Positions 3,521 through 26,654 of a DNA stretch of 32,000 nt are shown piece by piece; position 1 is the stretch's first letter; every line of letters begins with the position of its first letter. A model generated the notes under the pieces. It did no database searches, had not been told where the DNA came from, and was given only the letters and a program-made list of their open reading frames with translations. The DNA comes from Anabaena azotica FACHB-119. GTDB lineage: Bacteria; Cyanobacteriota; Cyanobacteriia; Cyanobacteriales; Nostocaceae. The stretch is taken from positions 68,561 to 100,560 of the forward strand of contig NZ_JACJSG010000005.1 of the NCBI RefSeq assembly GCF_014697625.1. The letters run 5' to 3'. A program made the translations under genes and the position numbers.

Positions 3521-3682
3521 AACTAAACATTTCACACCATTGTCGTCCTTTTGCAATATGGCTGCCACAACAGCATGGCATATTGATTATTGTATTTGGT
3601 TACAAAATGCTTTTTTTGGGTTCAAAGGTAGGACTTCCTGCCTTTTTTTGTACCAAAATTACTTACTTCACCAAACTTGATC

Positions 3683-3805
3683 AGGACTTACGCAAGTGTC
3701 ACAATTGGTGGTTGGTGCGTGACGCTACAAGTCTCATGACTACGTTCAAATATTATCGCTCCTCACACACCCTACAGAAAAAATATGCCAGTTGCGTAAG
3801 TCCTA
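3683..3805 (+). mobile_element. MITE-like element, family B, copy 1 (123 bp; diverged interior)
   Basis: Termini AGGACTTACGCAAGTG ... CAGTTGCGTAAGTCCT form a 15/16 inverted repeat. The same termini and length occur at 15817-15939. Confidence 0.75.
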
Positions 3806-3844
3806 TTGATATATAGCGGATTGCAATCGGATAGAATACAGATT

Positions 3845-3910
3845 CATCTGCGTCCATCTGCGTACCCTGCGGGAAGGCTGCGCCAACATCTGCGTTCAAT
3901 CATTTTTTCT
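3845..3910. repeat. CATCTGCGT short repeats ending in ATCTGCGTTCAATCATTTTTTCT
   Basis: CATCTGCGT occurs at 3845, 3855 and 3887. A related block with the same ending occurs at 9260-9301. Confidence 0.8.
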
Positions 3911-3951
3911 GTACCTTACTGACTTAAAAACCGCTATAAATTTGGCTGTAA

Positions 3952-4827
3952 TTAATTTTGAATTGTTAATCCAGCTTCTTGAATTGCTGAAAAAGCGGTG
4001 TCTGCAATAATACGATGAGCCTCAGTTGTGGGATGAATCCCATCCCAAAACAGAAATTGGTTGGGGTTCCCACAGGCGTTAGAACCAGATAGACAAGAAC
4101 TACTCACATTAGTAAAGCCAAATGTCGCTGGATTGGTGATAGCATCTCGATATAACGCATTGGCGTTGAAAGTGACAATCTGAAGCTCAGAGTTTTGTTG
4201 AGAGAGTAGCTTGAGCGATCGCCTCAGCCCTTGGTTGTGTTCCTGTGTTAATGTACTTAAACTGGGGGAATTTGCGCCTGTTCGCGTTGCTGGTAGCTGT
4301 CCTAAGTCTGGTAGATTTCCCACGAGGAATTTTTTTGCACCGACTTTGCTTAGGGATGCGATCGCGCCAGTTACATTTTGCACAGGGATACTTGCATTAG
4401 TTACACCTTGCAAATAATCATTTGCTCCCGCCCACAGTACATATAAGCTGTTTGGGTTAGTTTCTTGCTGTGTTTGTGTAAATGATTGCACCTGAGGCAA
4501 TAAACTGGGTACATAAGCGTTAGCAAGATTGCCTGTAGTTGATCCTCCATAGGCAAAATTGTTAGTTTGCTTGGCGGTAAGATGTAAGCGATCGCTCAAA
4601 TACTCAACCCACACCCGACCATTGGAGTAACGTCCCTGATAGTACGCTGGCTGGGGTGGATAAATTCCCCCAGTCGCCCGAAATACCATACCTGCATCTG
4701 ACAGGCTATCCCCAAACACATACATTTCGCTGATGGGGTGAGTGTTATCGATAAATTTGGCAGATACAACCATGATAAAAACTAGGAATGAAATTACTAT
4801 TACAGAAAACAGATTCTTTTTTTGCAT
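3952..4827 (-). CDS. Secreted GDSL/SGNH-family lipase or acylhydrolase
   Basis: N-terminal hydrophobic signal or anchor (LFSVIVISFLVFIMVVSA). Block I is YVFGDSLSDAG, block III is WAGANDY, and block V is FWDGIHPT, matching the GDSL esterase/lipase pattern. Confidence 0.88.
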   Translation of the reverse strand: MQKKNLFSVIVISFLVFIMVVSAKFIDNTHPISEMYVFGDSLSDAGMVFRATGGIYPPQPAYYQGRYSNGRVWVEYLSDRLHLTAKQTNNFAYGGSTTGNLANAYVPSLLPQVQSFTQTQQETNPNSLYVLWAGANDYLQGVTNASIPVQNVTGAIASLSKVGAKKFLVGNLPDLGQLPATRTGANSPSLSTLTQEHNQGLRRSLKLLSQQNSELQIVTFNANALYRDAITNPATFGFTNVSSSCLSGSNACGNPNQFLFWDGIHPTTEAHRIIADTAFSAIQEAGLTIQN

Positions 4828-5483
4828 TAATCTTTCCCAAAAACCCCAGAGACTGTGGTTTTGTCAACTAACTACAAATGTGAAATTTTAAGTTTGTAAC
4901 TAATCGCTTCTCTAAGCTAACAACCCAACTCAAGGCTTGGTGAGTAAAACCGAATAATTGCAGGTGTGGATTTTCCCAAATGTTTTACTTGATATTCAAA
5001 TAAATGAATATACTTCTGTCTGGTATATTGGTAAGGCGATGAAGTTACCATAATGTAACATCCACTGTTCAATCAAGAATTTCAGAATAAACATTATAAA
5101 ATAATTTTAGGTTTTTCTTTATATATGCAGATATTGTTCTTCAATCTGCATAATTTTGTGTTATTGCTAACTTCAGACTTGTTAATTGCTGTTGAGATAT
5201 CTTGCTTGAGTAGAAGACATAGTTAGAACTCTAGACAGATAATTCTCAGGAAAAATTTTTCTACACTAAAAGTGTAACAAAATGTTAAGATTGTGTAATA
5301 CTGGAAAATGCCAGCTATCTAAATAGATTTTTAGTGACTGCCAATTTTACCGAAAATTAGGTAATAACTAGATTGATATCTTAAAGCTAACTTAAAGCTA
5401 AAAAAATAGCAAGCAGGAGTGTATCTGGAATAACTACATAATTTAACTTGTAAATCATCAACAAATAGTCACGGTAGAAAAGC

Positions 5484-6269
5484 ATGGTTCAATGTCAAAC
5501 ATCAACTCTGCATTCAGAAAAATCAGTTCTGATGGCATCAATAATAAAAGAGGATAAAGACCTGAATAAAGGTATATTTGTTGCAGGGCTTATTATATGT
5601 GTATGGGCGATTAGTCTAATTTTCTTAATCTCATTAGATACGACCAAAATGAATGCAGTATCAATAGGAATAGCTATACTTTGGCAAACATTCCTATATA
5701 CAGGGTTATTTATTAATGCTCATGATGCCATGCACGGTGTAGTTTATCCTAAAAATGCTAATATAAACAATTTCATAGGTAAATTCTCTCTAACATTGTA
5801 TGGGCTTTTATCTTATAAAGATTTATTAAAAAAGCATTGGCAACATCATCGCTATCCAGGTAGTGAATTAGATCCTGATTATCACAATGTTTATCCTCAA
5901 AACTTCTTTCTCTGGTATTGCCATTTTATGAAGTCCTATTGGAGTTGGACACAATTTTTTGGATTAGTTTTAATTTTTCAGGGACTAATAAATTTGTTTA
6001 AAATGCCCCAAGAAAATTTAATCTTATTTTGGATGATTCCTTCTACCTTAAGTTCAATACAGTTATTTTATTTCGGCACATTTTTACCTCATAGAAGGCT
6101 AGAAGGTGGATATACTAACCGCCATTGTGCGCGTAGTATTGGATTTCCTGTATTTTGGTCTTTTATTACCTGCTATCATTTCGGCTACCACGAAGAACAT
6201 CACGAATATCCTCATCTTCCCTGGTGGAAATTACCTCAAGCATACAATACAAAAACAGATGTAATTTAG
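5484..6269 (+). CDS. crtW: Beta-carotene ketolase CrtW (membrane di-iron oxygenase)
   Basis: Histidine boxes HDAMHG, HWQHH and HHEYPHLPWW. The overall sequence closely resembles the Nostoc punctiforme CrtW as I remember it (MVQCQ...LHSEK N-terminus). An alternative start at the Met of MASIIKED cannot be excluded. Confidence 0.9.
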   Translation: MVQCQTSTLHSEKSVLMASIIKEDKDLNKGIFVAGLIICVWAISLIFLISLDTTKMNAVSIGIAILWQTFLYTGLFINAHDAMHGVVYPKNANINNFIGKFSLTLYGLLSYKDLLKKHWQHHRYPGSELDPDYHNVYPQNFFLWYCHFMKSYWSWTQFFGLVLIFQGLINLFKMPQENLILFWMIPSTLSSIQLFYFGTFLPHRRLEGGYTNRHCARSIGFPVFWSFITCYHFGYHEEHHEYPHLPWWKLPQAYNTKTDVI

Positions 6270-6707: not shown

Positions 6708-9026
6708 ATGAGTGCAGAACGCAACTTTGCCTACCAATATCAACCAGGAGGAAGCCTCCCAGTTAATGCTCCAACTTATGTGACGCGACAGGCAGACTCT
6801 GAGCTTTATCAAGCTTTGTACAGAGGCGAGTATTGCTACGTCCTCAACTCTCGACAGATGGGCAAATCTTCACTCAGGGTACAGACGATGAGTAAGTTAC
6901 AAGCACAAGGAATTGTCTGTACTGAAATCGAGCTATCAGGAATTGGTAGTCAGCAGATTACAGCCCAGCAGTGGTATGGAGGTATCATTCAAGAATTGAT
7001 CAGTGGATTACAACTTCAAGTCAATAGGCGTAACTGGTTGCGCGAACGTGAGGATCTTTCCCCGGTGCAGTGCTTGGGCGAGTTCATTGAAACTGTGCTA
7101 TTGGCTCAGATTCATCAACCCTTGGTAGTCTTTATAGATGAAATCGATAGCGTTCTCAATTTAAAGTTTCCCACAGATGATTTTTTCGCTTTATTGCGTA
7201 ATTGCTATGATAAGCGGGCGACTATACCTGAATATAGGCGTATCACCTTTGTTTTCTTAGGAGTGGCAACACCAGCAAATTTGATCGCCGACCCCAATTC
7301 TACCCCCTTTAATATTGGTCAGGCAATTGAATTGAAAGGTTTTCAACTGCATGAGAGCTATATTTTAGCCCAAGGACTAGCCCACAAAGCGAGTAATTCT
7401 CAAGCAGTGTTGAAAGAAATATTGTATTGGACAGGGGGACAGCCATTTCTCACTCAGAAACTCTGTTGGTTAATTGCCAATTCTGAAATTTTTATCCCAG
7501 CAGGAGACGAGGCTAAGACTGTTGAGCAATTAGTACAGAAGCAAATCATTGAAAATTGGGAATCTCAAGATGAGCCAGAACATTTGCGGACAATACGTAA
7601 TCGCCTTTTGAGAAGCGAAAGATCTAGTGTAGAGTTGCTGTTGCTGTCGCAGCAAATTTTGCAGCGAGGTAAAGTTGTCGCTCAAGATTCTCCTGTTGAA
7701 TTAGAGTTGCGACTGTCTGGTTTGGTAGTCAAGCAGCAGGGAAATTTAACCATCAAAAACCGGATTTACCAATTAATCTTTAATTTGGATTGGGTAGAAA
7801 CACAGTTAAAAGTTTTGGGTGTCTCTTCCCCAACAACCTCAATTTGGACAGTATTAGTAGCGAGTGTAGCTGTTGCCGCTTTCGTGATGGGACTGCGAGT
7901 GCTAGGAATTTGGCAATCACTTGAGCTACAAGCTTTCGACCATCTGATGCGCCGTCAGCCGCCGGAGTTACCAGAACGGCGTTTGTTAGTAGTTGGAGGA
8001 GATGAAGCTGATATTAGGCAATATGGCTATCCCATCCCTGATGCCATTCTTGCCCAGGTATTAGACAAGCTCAATCAGTATAATCCAAAAGTTATCGGCT
8101 TGGACATAGTGCGCGATCGCCCCATACCACCAGGGCAGGCAGCATTCATCAAGCATCAACAACACAATCAAAACTTAATTGCCGTATGTGCAACTCATCA
8201 AGACTCCAACCAAAGTATTGCACCTCCGCCACAAATTCCCGCCGCACAAGTCGGCTTTGCAGACTTATATGCTGATAACCTGGGAAAGAATCAGGACTAT
8301 ACCATTCGTCGCTATCTTTTATCCCGCACTCCCAACCCTAACTCGGCGGCTTCCCCTTGTGCTACCAACTATTCTTTCGGTTTTCAGGTGGCATACCGCT
8401 ACTTACGCGCTAAAGGTATTGTTGTCAAGGCTCAAGCAGACAACTGGATATTTGGATCTATTATCAGTAAACGCTTGGAGTCCCGCACTGGTGGGTATCA
8501 AAACTTGGATGCGCGAGGCAACCAATTACTACTTTATTACCGCAACACTGTCGATCCCAAAAAGATAAGTCAACAAGTTTCTTTTAGAGATGTACTCAGC
8601 CATAAATTTAACCCAAATTGGGTTCAGGGACGAGTTGTTCTCATTGGCATGACGGCGACAAGCATCCAAGATTTTCACGATACACCTTTGGGGAGAATGC
8701 GGGGGCTATACGTCCATGCACATTTAGTCAGCCAAATTTTAAGTGCTGTAGAGGATAATCGACCTTTGTTGTGGTGGTTGCCCTTATGGGGAGATGGGTT
8801 GTGGGTTGTATTTTGGTCAACCGCAGGAGGGATAATTGTTTGGCAGTGCAAGGTGTCGCTATACCGAGGGCTGGGTATTAGCATCTGCACCTTGGTGCTA
8901 TATGGGCTTTGCTGGTTTAGCTTCTCCAAAGGTGGGTGGCTACCGTTTGTCCCATCAGCCTTAGCTTTATTTGCTACGGGGGGAAGCATAGTAGCTAAAG
9001 AAAGGTTTTCTCAGTTGCAGAAATAG
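6708..9026 (+). CDS. Membrane protein: N-terminal AAA-like (PF14516-type) NTPase, one TM, periplasmic CHASE2 sensor domain, three C-terminal TMs
   Basis: N-terminal region [26 protein letters not shown], then [15 protein letters not shown] (Walker A-like) and [11 protein letters not shown] (Walker B), as in cyanobacterial AAA-like domain proteins. TM segment [29 protein letters not shown]2 hallmarks [48 protein letters not shown] and [20 protein letters not shown]. Three closing TM helices follow. Confidence 0.85.
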
Positions 9027-9068
9027 TATCATCAGGCTGAAATCGTTAGAGGATGTTTGGAAACCACT

Positions 9069-9096
9069 GTAGAGACGTTGCCTGCAACGTCTCTAC
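9069..9096. repeat. Palindrome GTAGAGACGTTG-CCTG-CAACGTCTCTAC (12-bp stem, 4-nt loop)
   Basis: Read directly, 43 nt after the stop of the CHASE2 gene. A related palindrome lies at 12991-13018. No T-run follows it. Confidence 0.85.
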
Positions 9097-9104
9097 TAAC
9101 TCAT

Positions 9105-9257
9105 CTTATATCAAGTTCGGCTAATTACTTATAATATGGTTGTTTTGGTCGGTAATTGGTAATAGCTAATAGGTAATTGTTGTGAGCCATTACCGATTAC
9201 CGATTACCTATTACCAGCCCCCAATATATGATAAGTATTTAAGCGGATATGATATTA
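9105..9257. mobile_element. MITE-like palindromic element, family A, copy 2 (153 bp)
   Basis: 152/153 identical to 6459-6611 and in the same orientation. Flanking sequence is unrelated on both sides. Confidence 0.85.
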
Positions 9258-9259
9258 AT

Positions 9260-9301
9260 CATCTGCGTTTATCTGCGTTTATCTGCGTTCAATTTTTTTC
9301 T
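9260..9301. repeat. Tandem 10-mer (C)ATCTGCGTTT x3 ending in ATCTGCGTTCAATTTTTTTCT
   Basis: Direct reading. Related to 3845-3910. Confidence 0.85.
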
Positions 9302-9430
9302 AAATCTACTGCCACATTTTAGTCTAGACAAGCTACTACATTATTTTTCGGTGCAATTTCATAGAGAATTGGTATAAGATTTACATGAAAATCCCATTGT
9401 TCTGTTGTAGTTGACTAGGTAACGCACAAT

Positions 9431-10177
9431 ATGGCATGGAAACCTATGAAAGTTGGTTTGACTATTGCTCTGGCATTGACGATATTTGTCAGTAACTCTA
9501 CATTAGGCAGCCTACACAGCAGTTCTGCGCCGCCGCCGCCGCCAGATACAGGTACACCCAAAGGTGATTCTACACCAGGAACAACCCGTCCCAGCGCCAC
9601 TTGTCCAAAGACGAGTAAACCTTTAACTGCCTTAGTAGCTAATAATGGTAATGACTATACGCTTTTGGAGCATCCAACTTTTTGGTTTTATATTCCCTAT
9701 GCTCCTGAGCAAATAAATTATATGGAGTTTTTGCTGCTTGATGGTGATGAGCGTCAGACTATTTACCGAACTGCGGTAAAGTTGGTAGAAAAATCAGGTA
9801 TTATCAAAATTACAATCCCCGCCAAGTCGGAGTATTCTTTTAAAGTCAACGAAACTTATCGTTGGTATTTTAAAGTTAACTGTAAACTAGAACAAAACAA
9901 TCAGCCTGAGCTAGTTTTAAACGGTTGGGTGCAACGACAACCTCTCAACTCCAAGCTGAAAAATCAGATAGAGATGGCGAAGTCTCAAGAATACTTTATT
10001 TATAAACAAAATAATCTTTGGTATGATGCGATCGCTAATCTTGCTCAACAGTATTTTGCTAATCCAGCAAATCAGCAATTAAATCAGGATTGGGCTAATC
10101 TTGTGAAATTGCTGGGCTATTCCTGGGTCGTTCAAGAACCATTGGTAGATGCGGTGTTAATAGCACCCGTCGATTAA
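9431..10177 (+). CDS. Secreted DUF928-family protein
   Basis: Signal peptide (MKVGLTIALALTIFVSNSTLG), then a PPPPPDTGTP linker. Motifs I associate with DUF928 are present: HPTFWFYIPY and ETYRWYFKVNC. Confidence 0.75.
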   Translation: MAWKPMKVGLTIALALTIFVSNSTLGSLHSSSAPPPPPDTGTPKGDSTPGTTRPSATCPKTSKPLTALVANNGNDYTLLEHPTFWFYIPYAPEQINYMEFLLLDGDERQTIYRTAVKLVEKSGIIKITIPAKSEYSFKVNETYRWYFKVNCKLEQNNQPELVLNGWVQRQPLNSKLKNQIEMAKSQEYFIYKQNNLWYDAIANLAQQYFANPANQQLNQDWANLVKLLGYSWVVQEPLVDAVLIAPVD

Positions 10178-12867
10178 AGCCAATTACCAACTAAAACATA
10201 ACCTGCCCAATAATAAGGATTTTGATACTTTCGTTCTTTCATCAAAACTTGCCCTGCGCGATGGAGTGCCATAGCCTTGCTCATTCCTGGCTGACTTAAC
10301 TCTTTGTAGAATTGCTGCATCAGCTTGACAGTAGAATCATCGCTAACTTGCCACAAAGTAGCTAAGGTACTGCGAGCGCCAGAACGAACAGCTAACCCAG
10401 CTAAACCTAAAGTTGCCCGGTTGTCTCCTGCTGCTGTCTGACAAGCACTCAGGACAAACAACTCTATAGGGCTAGATGTTCTTTTTTGGCTACTTGTCAA
10501 TAAGTTCTCTAAATCATTGGCTCTGAGGAGTTCGCCATAGGCGAGAATAAAAGTCTGTTCGGGGTCAGAACTGAAATTACCGTGAGTCGCCAAATGGACT
10601 GCGGAAAATCCACCAGAGTTAAAATTTTCTTGGAGGTTGGCTTTAGTAAATTGGGCGTTCATCAAGATTTTACTTGATGTTATCTGCTGAATTTGTTGCA
10701 ACTCTTCTGTAGCATTAATTGCCGCAAAATAGCGATTTTCTACTTCTAAAGCAGTATTAATGCCAGCACCTAAAACTTTTAATTGCTGAGACCTGGGTCG
10801 TAGGTCAAACAGTTGAGCGTTGGGTAGAACGGCAAGAGCGTACTTTTTTTCAATCAGATATTCGTTGGCTTTACTATCATAAAGGACGGACATGGGAATA
10901 TTACGCAAGTTCCCATCAAGTACAAACACTAAGGTTTGAACTTCCTTACTCTTTTGCAAATGTGGCTCTAGTGGTTCGAGCAACCATCGATAAATTTGTT
11001 GAGAATTTTCGCGGATTTTTCCCGCATTGCGCCCTAATAAGGCTGTTTTCAATTGTTCGAGGGTTTTTTCCACCACCGTCTGGGGAATTAAAGAGCTATA
11101 ATTTCCTATTGGTTGCCCTGGCAATTGAAAAATTACTTCTAATCTATCTTTGAGAATTATCGGGTAAATAAATGCTGCTTGGCGCGAGGCTTGATTTGGG
11201 TTCTGGTTGAGCGATACTATTTGACCAAGGTTACAACCAAGGTAATTTTCTAGTTCTGCCAGTTGTAAAGAGTCTGTATATGCGATCGCTTTTCGCAAAT
11301 TTTCTTGATTCGCTTGACCATTTTCTTGGTTGCTTAAGAGCAAATCTACTAATTCCCGGTAAACTGGCTCTACCTGATCTCTAAAAGATAACTGCACATC
11401 TGGATTAATGGTGAATAAGTCGCGACGCACAGATTTTAGCGTATCTACAGCCGCGATGTAGCTAGCGATCGCTCTTTTGTTATCCCCCTGTTTTTTCAGC
11501 AAGCGTCCTAACTGCCATTCCCAGCGATACTCAATTTCTCCAGCTTGAATCTCTTGGGCAATTAATAGCGCTTGTTCGGTCAGGTGTTGAGCCTCTGACC
11601 ACTGTTTGGTCAATTCATACAACCCTCCTAATTGACCCAGGGCATAGGATTTAGCTCTGCGGTCTTGCAAGCTTTCCGCCTGTTGGACTGCAACGGCTAA
11701 TATCTGCGCTATATCTCGCCATGTAGGGGTTTGTGCAACTTGGTTCTGAGTCGGTAGCTGTTGTTGAGGTCTTTTTATGCAAAAAGTTGTTTCTTTGTCA
11801 ATATCAGGGCGCAGACAAGTTAAGCTTTGGGCTAAATTAAGTCGGGCGTAGATGGCTGTACGGCTAGGAGGTAGGTTAGTAATGGACTGCTGAATTTGCG
11901 TCCACAGTTTGGCTGCTGCTACCGACTGTCCAGTTTCTACCCACAGACTTAATAGATTCAGTTGGGGTTGAATTTGCAGCCCCAATTCTGAAGCTTGTTG
12001 ATAAAATTGGCTTGCTTGTTGAGCGTGCTGAATTGCTTGTTCTTGTTTACCGAACGTAAAGGCTTGATTACTTAAGGCTCGTTCAGTATTGCCCAATTCC
12101 AAAAGCACTGAAGCTTTGGTTGAAGATTGTTCAGCTACTTGCAGACTTGCAGTTAAAACTTGCCGAGACTGAGTTAGCTTGCTAATTCGCCTGAGAGCAT
12201 TACCGAGGCGAAGTAAACCTGTAGCCTGGAGTTGAGGGTCAGATTCTAACTGGAGGAGATGGTTAATCTGCTGTAAAGTTGTTTCAGCTTGGCGGCTCAA
12301 CCCTAGAGCTTGTAAGGCTTTTGCTTGGTTAAGAAAACTACCAATCATCCCTAATTTATCGCCAGCTTGGGCGTAAGTAGCTGATGTCTGCTTCCAGGTG
12401 GCTAGGGCTTGTGCTAATTTTCCCTGAGCCAATTGTAAACTGCCTTGAGTATTGAGGGCTTTTGCTTGAATTTCTCGGTAAGTCTGCAAGTCAGATGATG
12501 CAGGAGGATTTTGTAGGAAGTTGAGACTTTTAGCGATCGCCACCTCAGCCGCCGACCACTGCCCCAAGTCCTGATACACTGAGGAAAGATTGCTCCAGAC
12601 CAATGCTAATTTCAGGTTATCGCCTTGTTGGGCAAATATAGCAGCTGCTTGCAACCAGACTTTCACTGCATCAGCCAACTGTTGAGCTTGGTAAGATTGT
12701 ATACCCTGTTGTAGTAATAATTGGGCATTTGCAGATTGAGCGATCGTTGGCGAAGCACCTTTTACCTGTTGAGGGAACACAACAGTAACGCCAATGCTAA
12801 ACATCAAAAGTGTTAGCAGCATTAGTCCTTGCATTCGTCGAAAAGCGGCTCGGAAAAACTTTGACAC
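10174..12867 (-). CDS. Secreted or periplasmic TPR-repeat CHAT-domain (caspase-like) protease
   Basis: Basic n-region plus hydrophobic core (FRRMQGLMLLTLLMFSIGVTVVF). About 450 aa of TPR-like repeats follow. The C-terminal CHAT domain has a His-Cys dyad context (VHLATHGNF, LFVLSACQTAAGD) and the tail YYWAGYVLVGNWL. The listed start is GTG at 12867; an in-frame ATG at 12834 is an alternative. Confidence 0.88.
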   Translation of the reverse strand: MSKFFRAAFRRMQGLMLLTLLMFSIGVTVVFPQQVKGASPTIAQSANAQLLLQQGIQSYQAQQLADAVKVWLQAAAIFAQQGDNLKLALVWSNLSSVYQDLGQWSAAEVAIAKSLNFLQNPPASSDLQTYREIQAKALNTQGSLQLAQGKLAQALATWKQTSATYAQAGDKLGMIGSFLNQAKALQALGLSRQAETTLQQINHLLQLESDPQLQATGLLRLGNALRRISKLTQSRQVLTASLQVAEQSSTKASVLLELGNTERALSNQAFTFGKQEQAIQHAQQASQFYQQASELGLQIQPQLNLLSLWVETGQSVAAAKLWTQIQQSITNLPPSRTAIYARLNLAQSLTCLRPDIDKETTFCIKRPQQQLPTQNQVAQTPTWRDIAQILAVAVQQAESLQDRRAKSYALGQLGGLYELTKQWSEAQHLTEQALLIAQEIQAGEIEYRWEWQLGRLLKKQGDNKRAIASYIAAVDTLKSVRRDLFTINPDVQLSFRDQVEPVYRELVDLLLSNQENGQANQENLRKAIAYTDSLQLAELENYLGCNLGQIVSLNQNPNQASRQAAFIYPIILKDRLEVIFQLPGQPIGNYSSLIPQTVVEKTLEQLKTALLGRNAGKIRENSQQIYRWLLEPLEPHLQKSKEVQTLVFVLDGNLRNIPMSVLYDSKANEYLIEKKYALAVLPNAQLFDLRPRSQQLKVLGAGINTALEVENRYFAAINATEELQQIQQITSSKILMNAQFTKANLQENFNSGGFSAVHLATHGNFSSDPEQTFILAYGELLRANDLENLLTSSQKRTSSPIELFVLSACQTAAGDNRATLGLAGLAVRSGARSTLATLWQVSDDSTVKLMQQFYKELSQPGMSKAMALHRAGQVLMKERKYQNPYYWAGYVLVGNWL

Positions 12868-12990
12868 TACTTAACTCTTAACTCCAGTATTTCTTATATT
12901 TTGCCCCACTCTCTTGTTGCCAAAATAACAGCCCCAAAACCTACAGCATATTGTGGGTAAATGAGGTACAAGCGTAAAACCCAAAACCAT

Positions 12991-13018
12991 GTAGAGACGT
13001 TACATGTAACGTCTCTAC
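12991..13018. repeat. Perfect 28-nt palindrome GTAGAGACGTTACATGTAACGTCTCTAC
   Basis: Read directly. It lies in the 288-nt gap between the TpsA-like gene and the CHAT gene and shares the stem family of 9069-9096. Confidence 0.9.
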
Positions 13019-13155
13019 AGTATGTCACGAATAGCGAAACTGCTGTAACTATTTCGTAGGGTGGGGAGTGCATCGCCACCTGCTGATATCATATCCGCTT
13101 ACAATCATCAAACCTATACTTTAAAAGCCTTCCACCCTATTCCCTTTCCCCTGCT

Positions 13156-15516
13156 TTAACGCCAGCCACAATCAACTGGGGATGGGTAAGCAATTAATTC
13201 TACATTCCCCTGTTTATTAATAATCCAACCTTGAGCTTCCACAATGCGCTCAGGAGTTGTGGAAACTGAGTTTTCAGCTAATTGTCTTGGCAGTTGCACA
13301 TCTCTCCAAACTTCATTGCTATCAAGGGGTTCATAAGGATTAGGTGGCAAACCACCACGCCCAGTAGCGATAAAAGAACTTTGGCTTTGCCGACTACCAG
13401 GGGTGCAAGCGGTGGAAATTTTTTGCGAAGCATCTAATACATTAATCGGCTGTTCGACTAACCCGTTTCTCACATCTACATCCGGTGTGTTAATTTGCAC
13501 TAAGCCATTAAATGCGGAATCTCTACCAGTAGCAGTGATATCGCTTTCTGAGGTAGGCTCATTACGATACTCAATACCAAAAACGTTGAGAGCGTCAATT
13601 TCTACATTACCACCACGGAAATCTTCTGAATTAGCACTAATATCACTATTTTCCCCAGGAACAGCAATAATAAAACCATTTCTGGCATTAATACTAATGT
13701 CACCACCAGTAACATTATTGCCAGTTGCGTTAGTGGTAATAGCGCTTTGATTGCGTAAGATTAACAAGGGTGTCTTCACAAAAATATACCCACCACCACC
13801 TGTAGTGTCAGCAGTGATTTTGCCTCTGTTGTTCAGATTGATAGAGCCAGCATCTACTGTCAAGTTACCTGCTCTGCCAAAGCCTTGATTACTGACGCTA
13901 ATTTCCGCACCATCTTGAACAGTTAATCTTCCTGTAATAATCGTCAAGTCACCAGCACTACCAGAACCTTCGCTAGCAGCGAACAAACTACTAGGAGCAA
14001 TTTGACCTTTCTTATCTATACCAGTGCCACTCACAACTACAGAATCAGGGGCATCTATATATAAAGTCCCCGCCTCACCCAGGCTACCAGCTATTGCTGC
14101 AACTGACATCCTGGCACCATCTTTAACAACTAGACGCTGAGTTTTGATGATTATGTCTCCTCCCCGGCCTGTCACAGAAACGCCATCTTGTCCTCTACTC
14201 TGAGAAATCAGTCCACTGGGAAAATCAAGATTATCTTTGACTGTGAAACCAATTGCTTCTATAGATTCATCGGCATTTACGCTCAATCTTCCCCCATCGC
14301 CAGCACTAAGAGTAGAAGTTGTCATTTGCCCTCCGTCACGGAGAATTACTTTCTTAGTATCAATGTGCATTTCTCCAGCATCACCAGCATCCTTTTGTGT
14401 ACTAAAACTGCGAACCCTTAAGCTAGAATATAAATTTCCGCCTCCTACTATCTCTACAAATTCATCGGCATCAACAGTTAAACTCCCTCCCTGTCCAACG
14501 CCTTCAGTAGAAGCTTCTATCATTCCACCTTCATAAACTAACAACCGCTTCGTTTCAATTATTATGTTCCCTCCTACTTTACTGCTATTAGTTAAGGTAA
14601 ATAGTCTAGAGTCACCATTGACTTCTACAGATTCAGATCCTTTGATTATTAAAGGTTGACCTGAGTTATTTCCATTGGTTGTCCCTCCTACTTGTGAAAC
14701 ATTTTTGATTACAATATTCCTGCCATAAAACTGAATAGCTCCACTGCCTTCACCCTCTGTAAAAATATAGCTGTTTTTTATTTCAATATCTTGGAAGTTC
14801 TGTGAGCTAGCATACCCTAATGCCCAGCCTTGGGTCAGTGGAGTTAGTGTAACTAAACTATTGTTAGTAACACTTCCTAGCTCGATTCGACCTGCTGGTG
14901 CTTCTATTTCACTAGCATTTATGAATATATCACCACCTAAAAAAGCTAAGGTTTCACGAGGTGAAACACTGAGTGTAGACTCATTAATTTGAATTGGTTT
15001 AGCAGTTTGCCCAAATTGCAATCCCACAGGAACCTTTTCAGTCAGTAGAGGTGGTTTCTGGGTATCAGTAGCACTAAATTCAGTTCCATCAGCAAAAAGC
15101 ATTTTACTAGCTGTGCTGGCTATAAAAGAACCATTAATATTTAATGAAGCATTTACACCGAAAATAATGCCGTTGGGATTAATCAAAAACAGGTTGGCAG
15201 AACCTGTTGTTTGAAGTGAACCATTTATGTGAGAGCTTAAATTACCTGTGACACGGCTAATAATATTCTTAATATTTGAATTGTTTTCAAAGGAAGCTGT
15301 TCCTTTTTCAGGTACAGAAAATTCTTGAAAACTATGAAACAGGTTACTTCCTACTTGTTTACCATCAGTAATAGTGAAGTTTAGTTTATCAGGACTTTCA
15401 ACCTTAGTGCCTAAAGTATTGTCGGCAGTAATTTGTGCGTAGGTTATATCATTGGTTTTTACAAAGCATATAAATATCAAACTTAATGCCGAAAGATGCA
15501 AAATTTGCTTTTCCAT
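13156..15516 (-). CDS. Two-partner-secretion exoprotein (filamentous hemagglutinin N-terminal TPS domain plus beta-helix repeats), TpsA-like
   Basis: Signal peptide (LHLSALSLIFICFVKTNDITYA). TPS domain motifs NLFHSFQEFSV and LFLINPNGIIFG. Repetitive GG-I-I / L-V-DGA beta-helix-like segments follow. The conserved-looking C-terminus is RIVEAQGWIINKQGNVELIAYPSPVDCGWR. Confidence 0.88.
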   Translation of the reverse strand: MEKQILHLSALSLIFICFVKTNDITYAQITADNTLGTKVESPDKLNFTITDGKQVGSNLFHSFQEFSVPEKGTASFENNSNIKNIISRVTGNLSSHINGSLQTTGSANLFLINPNGIIFGVNASLNINGSFIASTASKMLFADGTEFSATDTQKPPLLTEKVPVGLQFGQTAKPIQINESTLSVSPRETLAFLGGDIFINASEIEAPAGRIELGSVTNNSLVTLTPLTQGWALGYASSQNFQDIEIKNSYIFTEGEGSGAIQFYGRNIVIKNVSQVGGTTNGNNSGQPLIIKGSESVEVNGDSRLFTLTNSSKVGGNIIIETKRLLVYEGGMIEASTEGVGQGGSLTVDADEFVEIVGGGNLYSSLRVRSFSTQKDAGDAGEMHIDTKKVILRDGGQMTTSTLSAGDGGRLSVNADESIEAIGFTVKDNLDFPSGLISQSRGQDGVSVTGRGGDIIIKTQRLVVKDGARMSVAAIAGSLGEAGTLYIDAPDSVVVSGTGIDKKGQIAPSSLFAASEGSGSAGDLTIITGRLTVQDGAEISVSNQGFGRAGNLTVDAGSINLNNRGKITADTTGGGGYIFVKTPLLILRNQSAITTNATGNNVTGGDISINARNGFIIAVPGENSDISANSEDFRGGNVEIDALNVFGIEYRNEPTSESDITATGRDSAFNGLVQINTPDVDVRNGLVEQPINVLDASQKISTACTPGSRQSQSSFIATGRGGLPPNPYEPLDSNEVWRDVQLPRQLAENSVSTTPERIVEAQGWIINKQGNVELIAYPSPVDCGWR

Positions 15517-16079: not shown

Positions 16080-16502
16080 CTACTGGGAAAAACCGAAAAA
16101 CCGCCATAAAGTAGATAAGAAACTATAAATTCTTGTGAGAAATCTTTCATATTTGTTTGTTAGAGTTGCTCCTGGCGAACAGGTTCCACTCAGGCAATAT
16201 CCAATTTCACCATTACTTAAGGGGCATTTTAGCTGACCCTTGGGGCATATCTCTGAGAAACTGGATACTGGTTCTTCCCTATTAACATCCATTAAAAGTT
16301 TAGCGTTAAGTTCTTTTCCTATATTGAATAAATTTTCACTACTTGCCTTTATAGATGAGGCTGGAAGGAGGATTTCTGAGTCAGTCAATTTTGACGTAAC
16401 CTGTGGCATTGGTGTTTGAACTTCTTCAGCCATAGCCATAGAGCTAAAGAAGAACATAAATGAAAAGGTGAAGGAGATTACAAAAGCAAGTGTACGTTTC
16501 AT
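16080..16502 (-). CDS. Small secreted hypothetical protein (140 aa) with a Cys-containing C-terminal half
   Basis: Clear signal peptide (MKRTLAFVISFTFSFMFFFSSMAMA-EE). The mature part contains CPKGQLKCPLSNGEIGYCLSGTC. I recognise no family, and the local sequence looks AT-rich. Coding status rests only on ORF length and the signal peptide. Confidence 0.5.
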   Translation of the reverse strand: MKRTLAFVISFTFSFMFFFSSMAMAEEVQTPMPQVTSKLTDSEILLPASSIKASSENLFNIGKELNAKLLMDVNREEPVSSFSEICPKGQLKCPLSNGEIGYCLSGTCSPGATLTNKYERFLTRIYSFLSTLWRFFGFSQ

Positions 16503-16856: not shown

Positions 16857-18260
16857 ATGAACTTCAACTTGGATGAAGCAATAAAAACTGTAAATCAAGT
16901 AGTGTTTATCAAAGAAAAGAGAAAGTTAACAGATGTAGAAATTTTAGTTTTCAAAGGAGCTTGGCATAGACAAGAGTACGATCAGATTGCTGCCCAGAAT
17001 CAATACACAACAAGTTACATAAGTCAAGATGTTGCTCCTAAACTTTGGAAGCTTTTGACAGACTCTTTAGGAGAGAAAGTCAAAAAAAGCAACTTTAAAG
17101 AAGCCTTAAAGCGCTATTGGGAACAACAACAATTAGGGAATATTTTACTAGAACAAGCCCCAATTAACTTTGAAAGTCCTGAAATAATTTACAATGTCAC
17201 AGCTTATGAACAAAGTTTGGCTATTCAACAAAAGCCATCACTTCTAACTCCTGATATCTATGTAGAGCGCCCACCCATTGAATCTATTTGCTATAAAACC
17301 CTGTTGCAACCGGGATCGCTGATTCGCCTGAAAGCTCCCAGGTTGATGGGTAAAACATCTTTAATGACTAGGGTGCTGGCGCAGGTGGCTGAAGATGGCT
17401 ACCGGACTGCAAGTTTAAGCTTTGGGCTGGCAGATAGAAGAACCCACTTCACCAACCTCAATAAATTCCTGCGTTGGTTTTGCTTGAATCTCAGTCGAGA
17501 GCTAAAATTGCCGAGTGAGTTGGATGAATACTGGGATGAGGAAGGGATAGGAGCTAAGGTCAGTTGTACAACCTACTTGGAAGAATATCTGCTGGCGCAA
17601 GCAGACAGTCCTTTGGTTTTATGCTTAGATGATGTAGATTTGCTTTTTCCCTATCCAGAAATTTACGAAGACTTTTTTGGGCTACTGCGATCGTGGTATG
17701 AGAAAGCAAGAAGCCGCCAAACTTGGAAAAAATTGCGGCTGGTACTTGTCTACGGGACAGATGTTTACATCGAACTGAATATTAATCAATCTCCCTTTAA
17801 CGTGGGATTGCCCATTGAGTTACCAGATTTCACCCACTCTCAGCTACAAGACTTGGCTCTACAACATGGCGTAGAGGTTGATACAGATGAAGTTGAAATA
17901 TTAATGAACTTAGTGGGGGGACATCCTTATCTTTTAGAATTGACTTTAGCTCATCTTAAAAGTTATCCAGGCATTACCCTTAAGGAAATTTTGGCAACGG
18001 CGACGACAGAAGCGGGAATTTATGCTCACCATCTGCGGGATTTCTGGTTAAATCTGCAAGAGCATCCAGATTTGGCTTTGGCTTTTAAAAAAGTAGTTAC
18101 TTCTAATAGTCCTGTACAGCTAGAACCTATGCAGGCTTACCAGTTACAGAGTATGGGGTTAGTTAAACTTACTGGCAATGAGGTAGAGCCTCGGTGTTAT
18201 TTGTATCGCCAATATTTCTCTGAGCGCTTGGGGAATAGGCTTGAGACTGTCAAAAGCTAA
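16857..18260 (+). CDS. Cytoplasmic AAA-like (PF14516-type) NTPase with an N-terminal HTH-like helical domain
   Basis: The N-terminal ~90 aa (LTDVEILVFKGAWHRQEYDQIAAQNQYTTSYISQDVAPKLWKLLTDSLGEKVKKSNFKEAL) matches a module I have seen at N-termini of cyanobacterial AAA-like/WD40 proteins. Then IYVERPPIE, LIRLKAPRLMGKTSL (Walker A), LVLCLDDVDLL (Walker B) and SPFNVGLPIELPDF follow. This protein is a paralogue of the ATPase part of 6708-9026. Confidence 0.8.
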   Translation: MNFNLDEAIKTVNQVVFIKEKRKLTDVEILVFKGAWHRQEYDQIAAQNQYTTSYISQDVAPKLWKLLTDSLGEKVKKSNFKEALKRYWEQQQLGNILLEQAPINFESPEIIYNVTAYEQSLAIQQKPSLLTPDIYVERPPIESICYKTLLQPGSLIRLKAPRLMGKTSLMTRVLAQVAEDGYRTASLSFGLADRRTHFTNLNKFLRWFCLNLSRELKLPSELDEYWDEEGIGAKVSCTTYLEEYLLAQADSPLVLCLDDVDLLFPYPEIYEDFFGLLRSWYEKARSRQTWKKLRLVLVYGTDVYIELNINQSPFNVGLPIELPDFTHSQLQDLALQHGVEVDTDEVEILMNLVGGHPYLLELTLAHLKSYPGITLKEILATATTEAGIYAHHLRDFWLNLQEHPDLALAFKKVVTSNSPVQLEPMQAYQLQSMGLVKLTGNEVEPRCYLYRQYFSERLGNRLETVKS

Positions 18261-18357: not shown

Positions 18358-20259
18358 CTACACTGGATAGCTAGTTATGTCAACCAAACGTAAGCCTTGC
18401 TGGCTGACTTCCTTCCATTTGGCAGAGAAGCCCTTCCAGTCGCTATTCCACAAATAATATCCATCTTTACCAGCTCGGAACGCTCCAATAAAGAACCGTT
18501 TACCGTTCTGTACATAGGAATCTAGGCTAATTAGACGTAAGCCTTGCTTACTCAATTCCTCCCACTTAGCGATGAAAGCAGCCCATTCATAGGAATATAG
18601 AGCATAAGCATCAGTGCCAGAACCAAACACCCCATTAAATAACTGCTTACCACCCTGAGAATAGGTCGATACGTCAATCAATCGCAGTCCCTTCTTGCTT
18701 TCTGCCTCCCACTTAGCAGTGAATGCTTGCCAGTCCATACCAACCCACAGAGCATAAGGGTAGGTTCCAGCACGGAATACACCAGCATAGAGTTGTTTGC
18801 CTCCCTCAAAGTAGGTTTGCAAGTTAATCAAGCGGAGTCCCTTTTTGCTCAGTTCTTCCCACTTAGCCTTGAAATTGTCCCACTCTACGCCAACCCAGAG
18901 AGCGTGAGCATCTGTGCCGGCGCGGAAAACTCCAGAGTATAGCCGTTTATTTCCATCAACAAAAGTTTCTAGATCCACAAGCCGGAGTCCAGCATTAGAT
19001 AGTTCTTTCCACTTAACCAAGAAGCTATCCCAATCTCCTACCCAAAAAGCGTGGGGGTCATTTCCAGCACGGAAAACACCAACATAATTTCTGGGACTGA
19101 CAGGTGCGGTGGGGATCAGACCAGGAGCGTCTACCACCCATTGATATTTAACGGTGTATATCCCTCCGTGTCCTGTGAAGGTTAATGTACCAGGAGATGA
19201 AAGGCTGTTCCACCCTGATCTGTTAAGGTAAGCTGTCCCTTCTGCCGTTGGTAGATTAATGAGGGCAGCTCTGGGCGCAAAGATATCATCTTTAGCTAAA
19301 TCGGTGAGCCACTGTACAAACTTGTCCAGAACCCAGCCAAGGAATTTTCCTAAAACTTTGCCAATGATAGCCCCTATTGCACCACCTATGCCCCCGCCAG
19401 CAGCAGTCAGAGCATCTTCAATCCTGCGTTTGATTTCAGGGCCAGCTTTTTCCCAAGCATCTGTGAGAAAATCGGCAAACCCTCCCCAATCAATTTCGGC
19501 AAGATAGAGGATAGCTGCATAGTTTTTAGGCCAAAAAGAGGTCTTAGTGGTGTCAAATTGGTAGAACGTCTTACCTGGGAGGGGATAACTGACGACCGGA
19601 TTATCCTTTTCATCAAAATCCCCTTCTTTGTCTTTTACATCAAAAGGTTTGATTTTAAAGACATTCCCAGTTTCGTCTATTACCATGCCTCCGATTTGGA
19701 TTTCGTCATCCCCTGCTTCTGATCCAAATAAGCCGTCGGTTTCGTCAACGCACTTAACTTCGGTAATGTGAAATCCAACTGATTTGACTTTCGCCTGAGA
19801 TGTCCCGCCACTAAGTGCTTGTATGGCGATAGGTTCTGCAACTGCGGAAACAATATTTTGAGTTAGAGGCAGCGTCTCAATCTGTATGACTGCATCAAGA
19901 AGCTTGGCGGAATTGAGCTGTAATGCAGGTAGACGGGTAGCAGTAAAACCTTGTTGAGCGTAGTCGTCAAGACTAAGAGAAGCGTAACGCCCAAAAGATA
20001 ATTGTCGCTCGGCAGTTGGCTGGGCAGCAATAGCTCTGGCTATTGATTGATACCCCAGTCTTTTTTCTGGTTTGAGTGTCGCAATTGCCAATCGGAAACT
20101 TTCTTCGACACTATCCTGTGCAAATGGCTTATCTTGTCTGTTTGCAGCTGCCAAGAAGGAGTATTGCAGCCCTTGCAACACATCTTCAGCGATTTTTTGT
20201 AATTCGCTATCGCTAAAACTATCAACGGATTGGCGCTCTATCGTGTTAGCAATTACCAT
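18358..20259 (-). CDS. Hypothetical 633-aa cytoplasmic protein: unknown N-terminal region, acidic beta-rich middle, glycine-zipper amphipathic segment, five ~48-aa C-terminal tandem repeats
   Basis: No signal peptide. Middle region: VKCVDETDGLFGSEAGDDEIQIGG. Glycine-zipper segment: AAGGGIGGAIGAIIGKVLGKFLGWVL. Five repeats follow the pattern Y-GVFRAG-D--ALWVG-W--F-AKWEELSKKGLRL--L-TY--GGK-L. Confidence 0.8.
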   Translation of the reverse strand: MVIANTIERQSVDSFSDSELQKIAEDVLQGLQYSFLAAANRQDKPFAQDSVEESFRLAIATLKPEKRLGYQSIARAIAAQPTAERQLSFGRYASLSLDDYAQQGFTATRLPALQLNSAKLLDAVIQIETLPLTQNIVSAVAEPIAIQALSGGTSQAKVKSVGFHITEVKCVDETDGLFGSEAGDDEIQIGGMVIDETGNVFKIKPFDVKDKEGDFDEKDNPVVSYPLPGKTFYQFDTTKTSFWPKNYAAILYLAEIDWGGFADFLTDAWEKAGPEIKRRIEDALTAAGGGIGGAIGAIIGKVLGKFLGWVLDKFVQWLTDLAKDDIFAPRAALINLPTAEGTAYLNRSGWNSLSSPGTLTFTGHGGIYTVKYQWVVDAPGLIPTAPVSPRNYVGVFRAGNDPHAFWVGDWDSFLVKWKELSNAGLRLVDLETFVDGNKRLYSGVFRAGTDAHALWVGVEWDNFKAKWEELSKKGLRLINLQTYFEGGKQLYAGVFRAGTYPYALWVGMDWQAFTAKWEAESKKGLRLIDVSTYSQGGKQLFNGVFGSGTDAYALYSYEWAAFIAKWEELSKQGLRLISLDSYVQNGKRFFIGAFRAGKDGYYLWNSDWKGFSAKWKEVSQQGLRLVDITSYPV

Positions 20260-22244: not shown

Positions 22245-22359
22245 ATTTATTGCTATGTATTCTCAGTAACTTTGAGAGGATATCAAGAAGTATATGCAAT
22301 TGTCAATCATCTATTTGATATGTATTTGCTTAAGTCAATAGCGATCGCATCTAAAATAA

Positions 22360-22520
22360 CGTGAGTTCGACAAGCGTTGTTTTGACCTCACCCCCAACCC
22401 CTCTCCTACGAGGAGAGGGGAGTAAGACGGTGTTTTTTCGCCTCCTTCTCCTGACGGAGACGCTACGCGAAGGCCTTTTAGGAGAGGGAGGTTGGGAGGG
22501 AGAGGTTCATCGAACTCACG
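22360..22520. repeat. 161-bp highly structured palindromic element (MITE-like) in the tonB-exbB divergent intergenic region
   Basis: Ends CGTGAGTTCGA (22360-22370) and TCGAACTCACG (22510-22520) are perfectly inverted. The inner arms ACCTCACCCCCAACCCCTCTCCT and AGGAGAGGGAGGTTGGGAGGGAGAGGT also pair. A nested hairpin CCTCTCCT-ACG-AGGAGAGG is present. Confidence 0.8.
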
Positions 22521-22659
22521 TTAAAAGACTACCAATTTCCCAGGCTTTTACCCTAATCGTCACCTCATCAAAAGATGACTTTTGAGCTAAGATTAGGAAT
22601 TGATTGACAAAGATTTTCATTTATTCTAGAGTGTTTTGATATCTTATCTCATTTAACTT

Positions 22660-22781
22660 GGGACTTACGCAAGTGTCATATTCAAACTAAATGTGGGGTG
22701 CATCAGCCCCAATAATTTCGTACAAATTAGAGGATTTTTCACATCTGACGCACCCTACCCAGTGCCAGTTGCGTAAGTCTT
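22660..22781 (+). mobile_element. MITE-like element, family B, copy 3
   Basis: GGGACTTACGCAAGTG...TCTGACGCACCCTAC...CAGTTGCGTAAGTCTT is collinear with copy 2 and roughly four-fifths identical by eye. Confidence 0.8.
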
Positions 22782-22964
22782 GTAACTGAATAAGACACAA
22801 ACCAAAATGACTTAACCAAATGATTCATTGAGGCTAGGTAGAGGGCAAAGGAAGTCTAGCTGGCATTTCCATAACCGTATTCCTGACTCCAAACATGGAT
22901 CATTCTGCTTTGTATTGTCAGTTTTGAGTAAGTTAATTTCATCTAAAAGCTTGAGAAGTGGTAC

Positions 22965-24000: not shown

Positions 24001-24013
24001 TAAAGATAGGGGA

Positions 24014-26358: not shown

Positions 26359-26360
26359 AT

Positions 26361-26653: not shown

Positions 26654-26654
26654 A

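Follow-up and report, generated by a model that had tools for sequence, protein, structure and literature searches.

A modular cyanobacterial cassette in which CHASE2 receptor and DUF928 genes recur beside genes for a predicted exported TPR-CHAT protease and a two-partner secretion exoprotein

We analysed a 32,000-nucleotide stretch of the Anabaena azotica FACHB-119 genome (contig NZ_JACJSG010000005.1, forward-strand positions 68,561 to 100,560; hereafter the window), in which a gene for a membrane receptor with a CHASE2 sensor domain stands beside genes for a secreted DUF928 protein, a TPR-CHAT protein predicted to be an exported cysteine protease, and an exoprotein of the two-partner secretion (TPS) type. 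Judged by the gene content of related loci, the window holds one copy of a modular cassette that is repeated hundreds of times in cyanobacteria. The arrangement is not coincidence, because gene order and orientation are fixed across the related loci. Our proposal, which we hold to be about as likely right as wrong, is that the cassette is a trans-envelope signalling module with the exported proteins as the input side of the CHASE2 receptor; we favour this because the extracytoplasmic parts are constant while the cytoplasmic domain of the receptor is swapped.

Conserved gene order in related loci

The comparison covered 160 related loci from genomes and metagenomes, worked from homologues of window proteins. 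A scan centred on DUF928 took the best 80 of at least 593 loci among GTDB species representatives, nearly all of them cyanobacterial, with 10-kb flanks, and a reciprocal scan centred on TPR-CHAT took 80 of at least 568 relatives on metagenome contigs. Neighbours were called by searching the open reading frames (ORFs) of the fetched loci with the window domains, using jackhmmer.

Of the 69 loci whose sequence reaches far enough upstream, 61 have a CHASE2 gene immediately before DUF928 and in the same orientation; the two genes are no more than 200 bp apart in 64 of 68 cases, with a median distance of 36 bp. Downstream of DUF928, a TPR-CHAT gene is present in 30 of the 49 loci with full flanks. 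The two genes are convergent in 40 of 42 cases (one-sided binomial probability of that many in one orientation ∼2e-10) and lie within 500 bp of each other in 28 of the 42. Beyond TPR-CHAT, a TPS protein is encoded in 22 of the 49 DUF928-centred loci. Seen from TPR-CHAT, the gene immediately upstream, in the same orientation, is TPS or ShlB in 36 of 51 loci. Of the 23 TPR-CHAT loci with both flanks of at least 9 kb, 20 contain TPS/ShlB, 16 contain DUF928/CHASE2, and 22 contain at least one of these.

A sequence-only reading of the window had proposed a recurrent, envelope-directed set of four adjacent genes, and had described DUF928, CHAT, hemagglutinin-like and CHASE2 genes as annotated side by side in other cyanobacteria. 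The ORF listing and Pfam place the four genes and their domains where that reading had put them, the neighbourhood it described is seen in the related loci, and the co-occurrence check, which had been set beforehand, gave the 61 of 69 and 30 of 49 reported above. The number four does not stand: the set is larger, a cassette of six genes, and a gene for a helix-turn-helix (HTH) AAA_35 protein belongs to it as the sixth, as described below.

Genomes carry several paralogous cassettes, frequently on plasmids, and versions are found on pNPUN03 of Nostoc punctiforme and pCC7120alpha of Anabaena PCC 7120. A CHASE2 query of plasmids matched cyanobacterial plasmids only. The two non-cyanobacterial CHAT matches inspected on plasmids (Azospirillum, Aureibacter) share the CHAT domain only and have other neighbours.

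The CHASE2 receptor and its DUF928 partner

Window genes were identified by listing the ORFs and scanning the 20 larger ones against Pfam, with domain E-values far beyond the Pfam thresholds. The receptor gene (6708-9026, plus strand) encodes 772 residues, with an AAA_35 domain at residues 13-358 (E 2e-34) and CHASE2 at residues 390-709 (PF05226, E 1e-64). Its AAA_35 domain carries Walker A (SRQMGKSS) and Walker B (VVFIDEID) motifs, which orthologues keep. A hydropathy scan finds one hydrophobic helix (375-402) before CHASE2 and flags two helices in the C-terminal group, and an AlphaFold2 model of residues 367-772 (predicted local distance difference test score, pLDDT, 88.5) has helices at 379-398, 693-713, 717-740 and 747-771, that is, one transmembrane helix before and three after the sensor domain. 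Together these place the CHASE2 domain, by prediction, in the periplasm and, in the cytoplasm, the AAA_35 domain and a C-terminal tail of only about 10 residues after the fourth transmembrane helix. The cytoplasmic module is the N-terminal AAA_35 domain. The AAA_35::CHASE2 architecture is common in cyanobacteria, with well over 100 clusters among the matches listed.

Directly downstream, the DUF928 gene (9431-10177, plus strand) encodes a putatively secreted protein of 248 residues (Pfam DUF928, E 3e-51), from a family of 6,522 clusters at 50% identity (E ≤ 1e-3). Its N-terminus reads MAWKPMKVGLTIALALTIFV...SSAPPPPPDTG, with the PPPPP stretch after the signal peptide. An AlphaFold2 model (pLDDT 85.8) shows an Ig/FN3-like beta-sandwich followed by a helical bundle; the N-terminal Pro/Gly-rich segment is conserved in the alignment and less ordered in the model. 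As modelled, DUF928 has a binding-type fold and is not an enzyme. A fold search with this model returned no PDB entry at E < 1e-3. Ranks 2 and 3 were the C-terminal domain of MtxA (4Z29), with a probability of 1.0 and template modelling (TM) scores of 0.51-0.52 on the target (0.51 for rank 2, chain B). The DUF928 profile found nothing significant among PDB sequences, and a PDB sequence search gave no match for either AAA_35::CHASE2 or the HTH-AAA_35 protein. For CHASE2, the confident model found nothing better than E 0.4 in the PDB fold search, and gave no structural hint of a ligand.

Conserved cysteine pairs are present in DUF928 (C58/C151), in CHASE2 (C494/C551, invariant and on the periplasmic side) and in the C-terminus of the TPS exoprotein (C704/C783). 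The spacer between receptor and DUF928 genes in the window is unusually long at 404 nt, against a gap of about 36 bp in most related loci. Between 9150 and 9300 it includes tandemly repeated short units (TTACCGA/TTACCTA heptamers and others of the CATCTGCGTTTAT type), and it shows no conservation against the orthologous spacer of Amazonocrinis CENA67.

A predicted exported TPR-CHAT protein

Convergent with DUF928 is the TPR-CHAT gene (10174-12867, minus strand, GTG start), encoding 897 residues laid out as a Sec-type signal, about 580 residues of TPR and a CHAT domain (PF12770, E 7e-57, residues 620-895). The N-terminus (MSKFFRAAFRRMQGLMLLTLLMFSIGVTVVF..VKG/AS) is basic and then hydrophobic, MSKFFRAAFRR-MQGLMLLTLLMFSIGVTVVF-PQQVKG/AS. 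A basic and hydrophobic N-terminus with AxA-like sites is present in 36 of 37 full-length TPR-CHAT orthologues. By the same criterion it is present in none of 57 CHAT::CHASE2 and none of 3 AAA_35::CHASE2 N-termini, and in no sigma-like protein; among 52 DUF1822 proteins, the N-terminus of 2 scores as hydrophobic. The CHAT domain carries the motifs HLATHG (His762) and LSACQT (Cys809), and both residues are invariant in 42 of 42 and in 24 of 24 orthologues, as are His758, Thr761, Gly763 and Ser807. At the level of sequence, TPR-CHAT had no match in the PDB.

Since the signal is kept in 36 of 37 orthologues, and since CHAT is also found fused to POTRA and to TPS domains (below), we predict that the CHAT protein is exported. 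From its sequence, TPR-CHAT is a caspase-fold protease with an intact His/Cys dyad and a predicted peptidase activity. The sequence-only reading had named both the export signal and the dyad (ATHG, SACQT), and both survive alignment. The signals that it had given for DUF928 (with PPPPP) and for the TPS protein (with its TPS domain), and the predicted periplasmic CHASE2 domain, are likewise present. Its further suggestion was that an exported caspase-fold protease next to a two-partner secretion substrate would be a different logic. Exported caspase-fold proteases as such have a precedent in a 2012 survey (PMC3501461), which predicted possible signal peptides on prokaryotic metacaspases; the same survey records a metacaspase-CHASE2 fusion.

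Proteolytic maturation or release of the exoprotein or of DUF928, which the sequence-only reading had put forward for the protease, is hypothetical, and the one specific cleavage idea examined gave a negative result. We considered the PGTTR segment before Cys58 of DUF928 as a CHAT cleavage site and dropped it, as other subfamilies have GGGSR or the Arg-free GGGLDPS in its place. More generally, the Arg-containing N-terminal motif of DUF928 is not universal and shows no correlation with a nearby TPR-CHAT gene, being present in 31 of 54 proteins with TPR-CHAT nearby versus 24 of 35 without.

Microcoleus-type cassettes (L031, L033, L036, L046, L048 and L049) encode an extra CHAT protein of about 490-630 residues that has no TPR. 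Its gene, at about 3,600-5,600 in these loci, is found upstream of DUF1822/CHASE2 and in the opposite orientation, and the domain was called by Pfam for L033 and by jackhmmer for the others.

The TPS exoprotein and fusions to CHAT

Upstream of TPR-CHAT, on the same strand, the window encodes a TpsA-type exoprotein (13156-15516, minus strand, 786 residues; PF05860, E 1e-60, residues 27-262; TIGR01901, E 2e-24). It has a signal-like N-terminus (..TYA/QI), the NPNGI motif at residue 113 and then a beta-helix region. Over 21 homologues, the C-terminal ∼120 residues are conserved as GLxxLP...C...SxFxxTGRGGLPPxP...IVEAQGWxxxxxGxVxLxA...C.

The sequence-only reading had remarked that the expected TpsB transporter is not in the window, and indeed Pfam finds no ShlB/POTRA gene among the 20 larger ORFs. 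Most Nostocales copies of the cassette likewise have no TpsB gene. In loci L006, L008, L047, L059 and L064, and in more from metagenomes, tpsA and TPR-CHAT flank a ShlB/POTRA_2 gene; in the five named loci the reading frames overlap and form one operon. We infer that the TpsB of the window TpsA is encoded elsewhere in the genome, and that export of TpsA would depend on it.

Two kinds of fusion carry CHAT into this pathway. Mastigocoleus testarum encodes, on two near-identical contigs (L076/L078:6298-10839, minus strand), a protein of 1,513 residues with the order signal peptide-POTRA-POTRA_2-TPR-CHAT; from its domain order this looks like a TpsB that lost its barrel and whose N-terminus became joined to the adjacent TPR-CHAT. 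The second is a family of ∼1,650 residues, widespread in cyanobacteria, with an N-terminal family 2 glycosyltransferase (GT2) domain, a hydrophobic segment, TPS, a beta-helix and a C-terminal CHAT domain (L082:222-5165 on the minus strand; L173:10001-14923; L175:10001-14998). Both TPS and CHAT are found in every one of the 120 homologues listed for the L082 TPS-CHAT protein, and the N-terminal GT2 in most of them. We had suspected GT2 on the L082 ORF to be an artefact of ORF calling; the database homologues, which show a widespread and real fusion, led us to reject this. The topology is odd, a presumably cytoplasmic glycosyltransferase being attached to a TPS exoprotein. GT2-TPS-CHAT genes have a divergent ShlB/TpsB neighbour, and in Scytonema hofmannii the fusion gene is followed by genes for a CHASE2-Ser/Thr kinase and DUF928. 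As read from their domain architecture, both kinds of fusion link CHAT physically with the TPS pathway and the extracytoplasmic space.

Interchangeable cytoplasmic modules and the HTH-AAA_35 partner

The CHASE2 proteins of the cassette carry a variety of cytoplasmic modules: CHAT/caspase, AAA_35, Ser/Thr kinase (at either end), adenylate/guanylate cyclase with or without PilZ, PAS-HisKA_3-HATPase, SpoIIE/PP2C and TIR. The last is represented by a TIR-annotated protein of 1,049 residues with CHASE2, encoded on plasmid pB of Kovacikia minuta (L172:7036-10185) divergently from DUF928. A CHAT/caspase N-terminus is the majority form (54 of ∼60 related receptors in the first set), and the commonest cassette type combines a Sigma70_r4 protein, DUF1822 and CHAT::CHASE2. 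Across these changes of module the extracytoplasmic components stay the same. Compared in this way, the constant feature of the sensor is the CHASE2-DUF928 pair and not the ATPase; the transmembrane ATPase sensor that the sequence-only reading had picked out is present here, but its ATPase is one of many interchangeable modules.

Where the module is AAA_35, a soluble AAA_35 paralogue is encoded beside the receptor in every case examined (six independent genomes), usually with an HTH_VMAP-M9 N-terminus. The cases were CENA67, L007, L025, Gloeothece PCC 7424, Nostoc TCL26-01 and Pleurocapsa PCC 7319, with L083, L084 and L086 among the loci. In the window this position is taken by the gene at 16857-18260 (plus strand), for a soluble HTH_VMAP-M9 + AAA_35 protein of 467 residues (AAA_35, E 2e-142); HTH_VMAP-M9 is called on its CENA67 orthologue. 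Going by this recurrent pairing, the gene belongs to the cassette as the AAA_35 partner of the receptor. Receptor and HTH-AAA_35 paralogues both keep Walker A, Walker B, SPFN[IV]G and GG[QH]P[FY]L, the last of which appears to resemble the GLPL motif of STAND (signal transduction ATPases with numerous domains) NTPases. The domain content suggests that the HTH-AAA_35 protein is likely a cytoplasmic, DNA-binding output.

Comparison with known systems

The closest described system is that of the EACC2-caspase proteins (Kaur, Iyer, Burroughs & Aravind, eLife 2021), a computational study whose relevant passages describe variable C-termini, among them CHASE2, with neighbouring genes for extracytoplasmic function (ECF) sigma factors and DUF1822, and propose that a stimulus is sensed and then answered transcriptionally. 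This EACC2-caspase-CHASE2/ECF sigma/DUF1822 system is the majority form of the cassette analysed here, with the same plan of a CHASE2 receptor bearing an N-terminal module and having a DNA-binding partner. The window differs in having AAA_35 in place of the EACC2-caspase and HTH-AAA_35 in place of ECF sigma and DUF1822, which are absent. It thus lacks the defining features of the EACC2 systems while following the same overall plan. DUF928, secreted TPR-CHAT and TPS proteins do not figure in the passages of Kaur et al. that describe these systems.

With two-partner secretion (FhaB/FhaC, ShlA/ShlB), the window TpsA shares the signal, the N-terminal TPS domain with NPNGI and the beta-helix passenger, and in related cassettes a ShlB/POTRA_2 TpsB adjoins TpsA. 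Unlike FhaB and ShlA, it has no TpsB among the larger ORFs around it, its passenger is short (786 residues) with a Cys-containing C-terminus, and no toxin or adhesin domain is recognised in it. The window also adds a gene for a dedicated secreted CHAT protease and the CHASE2 receptor unit. Contact-dependent inhibition (CdiA/CdiB/CdiI) was rejected as a model, since the TpsA C-terminus is conserved and the next gene is TPR-CHAT and not an immunity gene.

Csx29 of the type III-E CRISPR "Craspase" and the gasdermin-activating CHAT proteases are cytoplasmic, and are tied to Cas7-11 or gasdermin genes. Like the window protein they have TPR followed by a clan-CD CHAT domain with a His/Cys dyad; unlike them, the window TPR-CHAT has a conserved Sec signal and lies beside TPS genes. 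Both analogies were rejected on localisation and gene context. No CRISPR-associated or gasdermin family turned up in Pfam scans of the window ORFs, and PADLOC gave no defence-system match beyond generic TPR.

The window receptor has the CHASE2 and transmembrane layout of classic CHASE2 receptors (Zhulin et al. 2003), as judged from the Pfam match, the model and hydropathy. Those receptors, however, carry a kinase, cyclase or GGDEF/EAL module at the C-terminus, and the window receptor is inverted, with its module N-terminal, as are the CHAT::CHASE2 forms. Secreted partners have been noted at two such receptors. In Magnetospirillum, the passages of PMC4439547 concerned describe MtxA as a secreted protein with an Ig-like and a TPR-like helical domain, encoded directly before a CHASE2 adenylate cyclase, and report a deletion of mtxA that had no phenotype. 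In the Burkholderia "BiofilmReg" operon, as described in the corresponding passages of PMC5192318, a secreted LysM-FecR protein is encoded before a CHASE2 histidine kinase, and CHASE2 ligands are there called unknown. Like DUF928, both MtxA and LysM-FecR are secreted, non-enzymatic, beta-sandwich-containing proteins encoded by a CHASE2 receptor gene. They differ in having no sequence similarity to DUF928; the structural match, which is to MtxA, is weak, and the passages cited involve no CHAT protease or TPS protein. From this weak structural match and the gene context, pairing with a secreted beta-sandwich protein may be common to CHASE2 receptors in general.

The Toll/Spaetzle cascade and FecA-FecR-FecI share a logic with our proposal, in which a surface event leads through an extracytoplasmic step to a membrane receptor and then to a transcription factor. 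These are functional analogies only: no components are homologous, and the proteolytic step is hypothetical here.

Full-text searches of the literature found no link between CHAT and two-partner secretion, nor between DUF928 and either TPS or CHAT proteins (subscription-only papers lay outside these searches). A survey of WD40 proteins does record a CHASE2-DUF928 neighbourhood in Nostoc punctiforme. Our conclusion from this set of comparisons is that the half comprising ECF sigma, DUF1822 and caspase-CHASE2 is already known computationally, while neither the exported half (DUF928, TPS, secreted TPR-CHAT) nor the way it is coupled to CHASE2 appears to have been described before, all of the domain families being known.

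Proposed mechanism and alternatives

We propose that the cassette comprises two units, the first being the CHASE2 receptor with DUF928 and the second the TPS exoprotein with the Sec-exported TPR-CHAT. TpsA, exported by TpsB, would stand at the cell surface, and TPR-CHAT would reside in the periplasm, docked to the TpsA/TpsB apparatus. From there it would act on DUF928 or the CHASE2 ectodomain and change its state, cleavage being the simplest way. DUF928 would serve as co-receptor or ligand of CHASE2, and the pair would relay the signal through the membrane to the AAA_35 domain, whose nucleotide-dependent association with HTH-AAA_35 would shift transcription. The individual step from protease to DUF928 is unlikely to be right in this form. 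We offer with equal reserve, as an improbable but specific idea, the fuller version in which what CHASE2 senses is a protein, DUF928, whose state is set by the exported CHAT protease docked on the TPS exoprotein, giving an extracytoplasmic proteolytic cascade of Spaetzle/Toll-like logic with interchangeable outputs.

Several observations count against placing the exported proteins on the input side. TPR-CHAT is missing within 10 kb of approximately 40% of DUF928-CHASE2 pairs, and approximately 30% of TPR-CHAT/TPS sets have no DUF928/CHASE2 nearby; because these loci hold one unit alone, the two units can work apart. They are convergent and not co-transcribed. The percentages describe the 80 best-scoring loci of each scan, close relatives rather than whole families, and carry no random-locus baseline. 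TpsB is found in only 7 of the 80 DUF928-centred loci, and the larger ORFs of the window include none. The likeness of modelled DUF928 to MtxA is weak (TM scores of 0.38 and 0.51) and has no support from sequence. The N-terminal segment of DUF928 varies by subfamily, in a form that does not track the presence of TPR-CHAT. Finally, proteolysis, binding and export in the cassette are predictions from sequence.

An alternative explanation is that the CHASE2-DUF928 pair senses an unrelated cue, and that the TPS exoprotein and TPR-CHAT are regulated products switched on by HTH-AAA_35 or the ECF sigma factor, such as an adhesin at the surface and a protease that processes the matrix or proteins, for remodelling in biofilm formation, motility or the sheath. 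That the two units are separate, convergent transcription units and can occur apart agrees with this, as does the position of a DNA-binding output (HTH-AAA_35, or Sigma70_r4 with DUF1822) next to the commonest cassettes; a transcriptional response is also what Kaur et al. 2021, in the passages concerned, proposed for caspase-CHASE2/ECF sigma systems. The same TPS/TPR-CHAT/DUF928 set is found, however, beside kinase, cyclase, PP2C and TIR outputs, which have no direct control of a neighbouring promoter, and the constant parts are all extracytoplasmic, as expected of a shared input and not of a shared target. We regard this explanation as rather unlikely.

The cassette might instead serve in conflict, keeping surveillance at the surface for phage, predators or contact with non-kin in multicellular cyanobacteria, with the cytoplasmic module triggering growth arrest or death. 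The range of modules includes caspase/CHAT, STAND-like NTPase and TIR, the paralogous cassettes of a genome often lie on plasmids, and Kaur et al. 2021, in the passages concerned, place the caspase-CHASE2 half among conflict systems. But ordinary outputs (kinase, cyclase, His kinase, PP2C) are found in many cassettes, TpsA has a conserved and not a polymorphic C-terminus and is followed by no immunity-like gene, PADLOC matched generic TPR alone, and Pfam scans find no mobile-element or defence-island context in the window. We therefore think a role in conflict quite improbable.

Weakest is the possibility that TPR-CHAT is only a dedicated periplasmic processor of TpsA, like the proteases that trim the FhaB prodomain, with DUF928-CHASE2 as an unrelated neighbour: its linkage to TPS/ShlB (20 of 23) is tighter than to DUF928/CHASE2 (16 of 23), tpsA-tpsB-TPR-CHAT operons and TPS-CHAT and POTRA-CHAT fusions exist, and the conserved C-terminal domain of TpsA could be a prodomain, yet DUF928/CHASE2 is present in 70% of TPR-CHAT loci with a fixed convergent geometry, and the linkage survives a change of architecture, as in the Scytonema GT2-TPS-CHAT beside CHASE2-kinase and DUF928, which makes this very improbable.

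Other features of the window

A small ORF at 16080-16502 (minus strand, 140 residues) precedes the TPS gene in the same orientation and encodes a Cys-rich protein with a signal-like N-terminus, which we regard as a tentative accessory of the cassette. A Pfam scan of it gave no family, and homologues in the same position are found only in Amazonocrinis CENA67 (L003) and in metagenome locus L133.

A palindromic element of 28 nt, GTAGAGACGTT-N6-AACGTCTCTAC, occurs in exactly two copies in the window, where none is expected by chance. The first (9069-9096) begins 43 nt past the stop of the receptor gene and the second (12991-13018), terminator-like on the minus strand, lies between the TPS stop and the TPR-CHAT start, such that the two bracket DUF928 and TPR-CHAT. 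The element may be a terminator or attenuator, an RNA hairpin, or a small dispersed repeat. A consensus scan of the window for promoters and terminators gave counts not above shuffled expectation.

Upstream of the cassette, Pfam assigns window ORFs to a DevBCA-like ATP-binding cassette (ABC) exporter, a GDSL lipase and a fatty-acid-desaturase-family gene, which are unrelated to it. On the other side, the gene at 18358-20259 (minus strand) encodes a BTRD1 (polyglycine-hydrolase-like repeat) protein with no signal peptide; in CENA67 a BTRD1 + beta-lactamase gene occupies the matching place, on the opposite strand relative to the window gene. A separate cluster for iron/siderophore uptake follows at 20805-31825, with TonB, ExbB and a probable ExbD, a penicillin-amidase family protein, two FecCD permeases, an ABC ATPase, a periplasmic binding protein and an FhuF reductase. 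It lies next to the cassette here and is not seen in related loci.

Implications

CHASE2, defined as a domain in 2003, is a widespread bacterial orphan sensor with no solved structure, and its almost invariable pairing with DUF928 in cyanobacterial cassettes provides a candidate partner. Whatever the output, a caspase-like protease predicted to be exported and a TPS exoprotein often accompany CHASE2 as well. What CHASE2 senses thereby becomes a genetically testable question, for which tractable copies of the cassette are available in Nostoc punctiforme and Anabaena PCC 7120. Through the predicted export of TPR-CHAT, clan-CD (caspase-fold) proteases would become a conserved and recurrent constituent of the bacterial envelope, and two-partner secretion may have a new, signalling role in free-living phototrophs. 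Should CHASE2 indeed sense DUF928 in a state set by the exported protease, the cassette would constitute a bacterial extracytoplasmic proteolytic cascade, feeding a STAND-like ATPase and HTH protein here, and a caspase, kinase, cyclase or TIR elsewhere.

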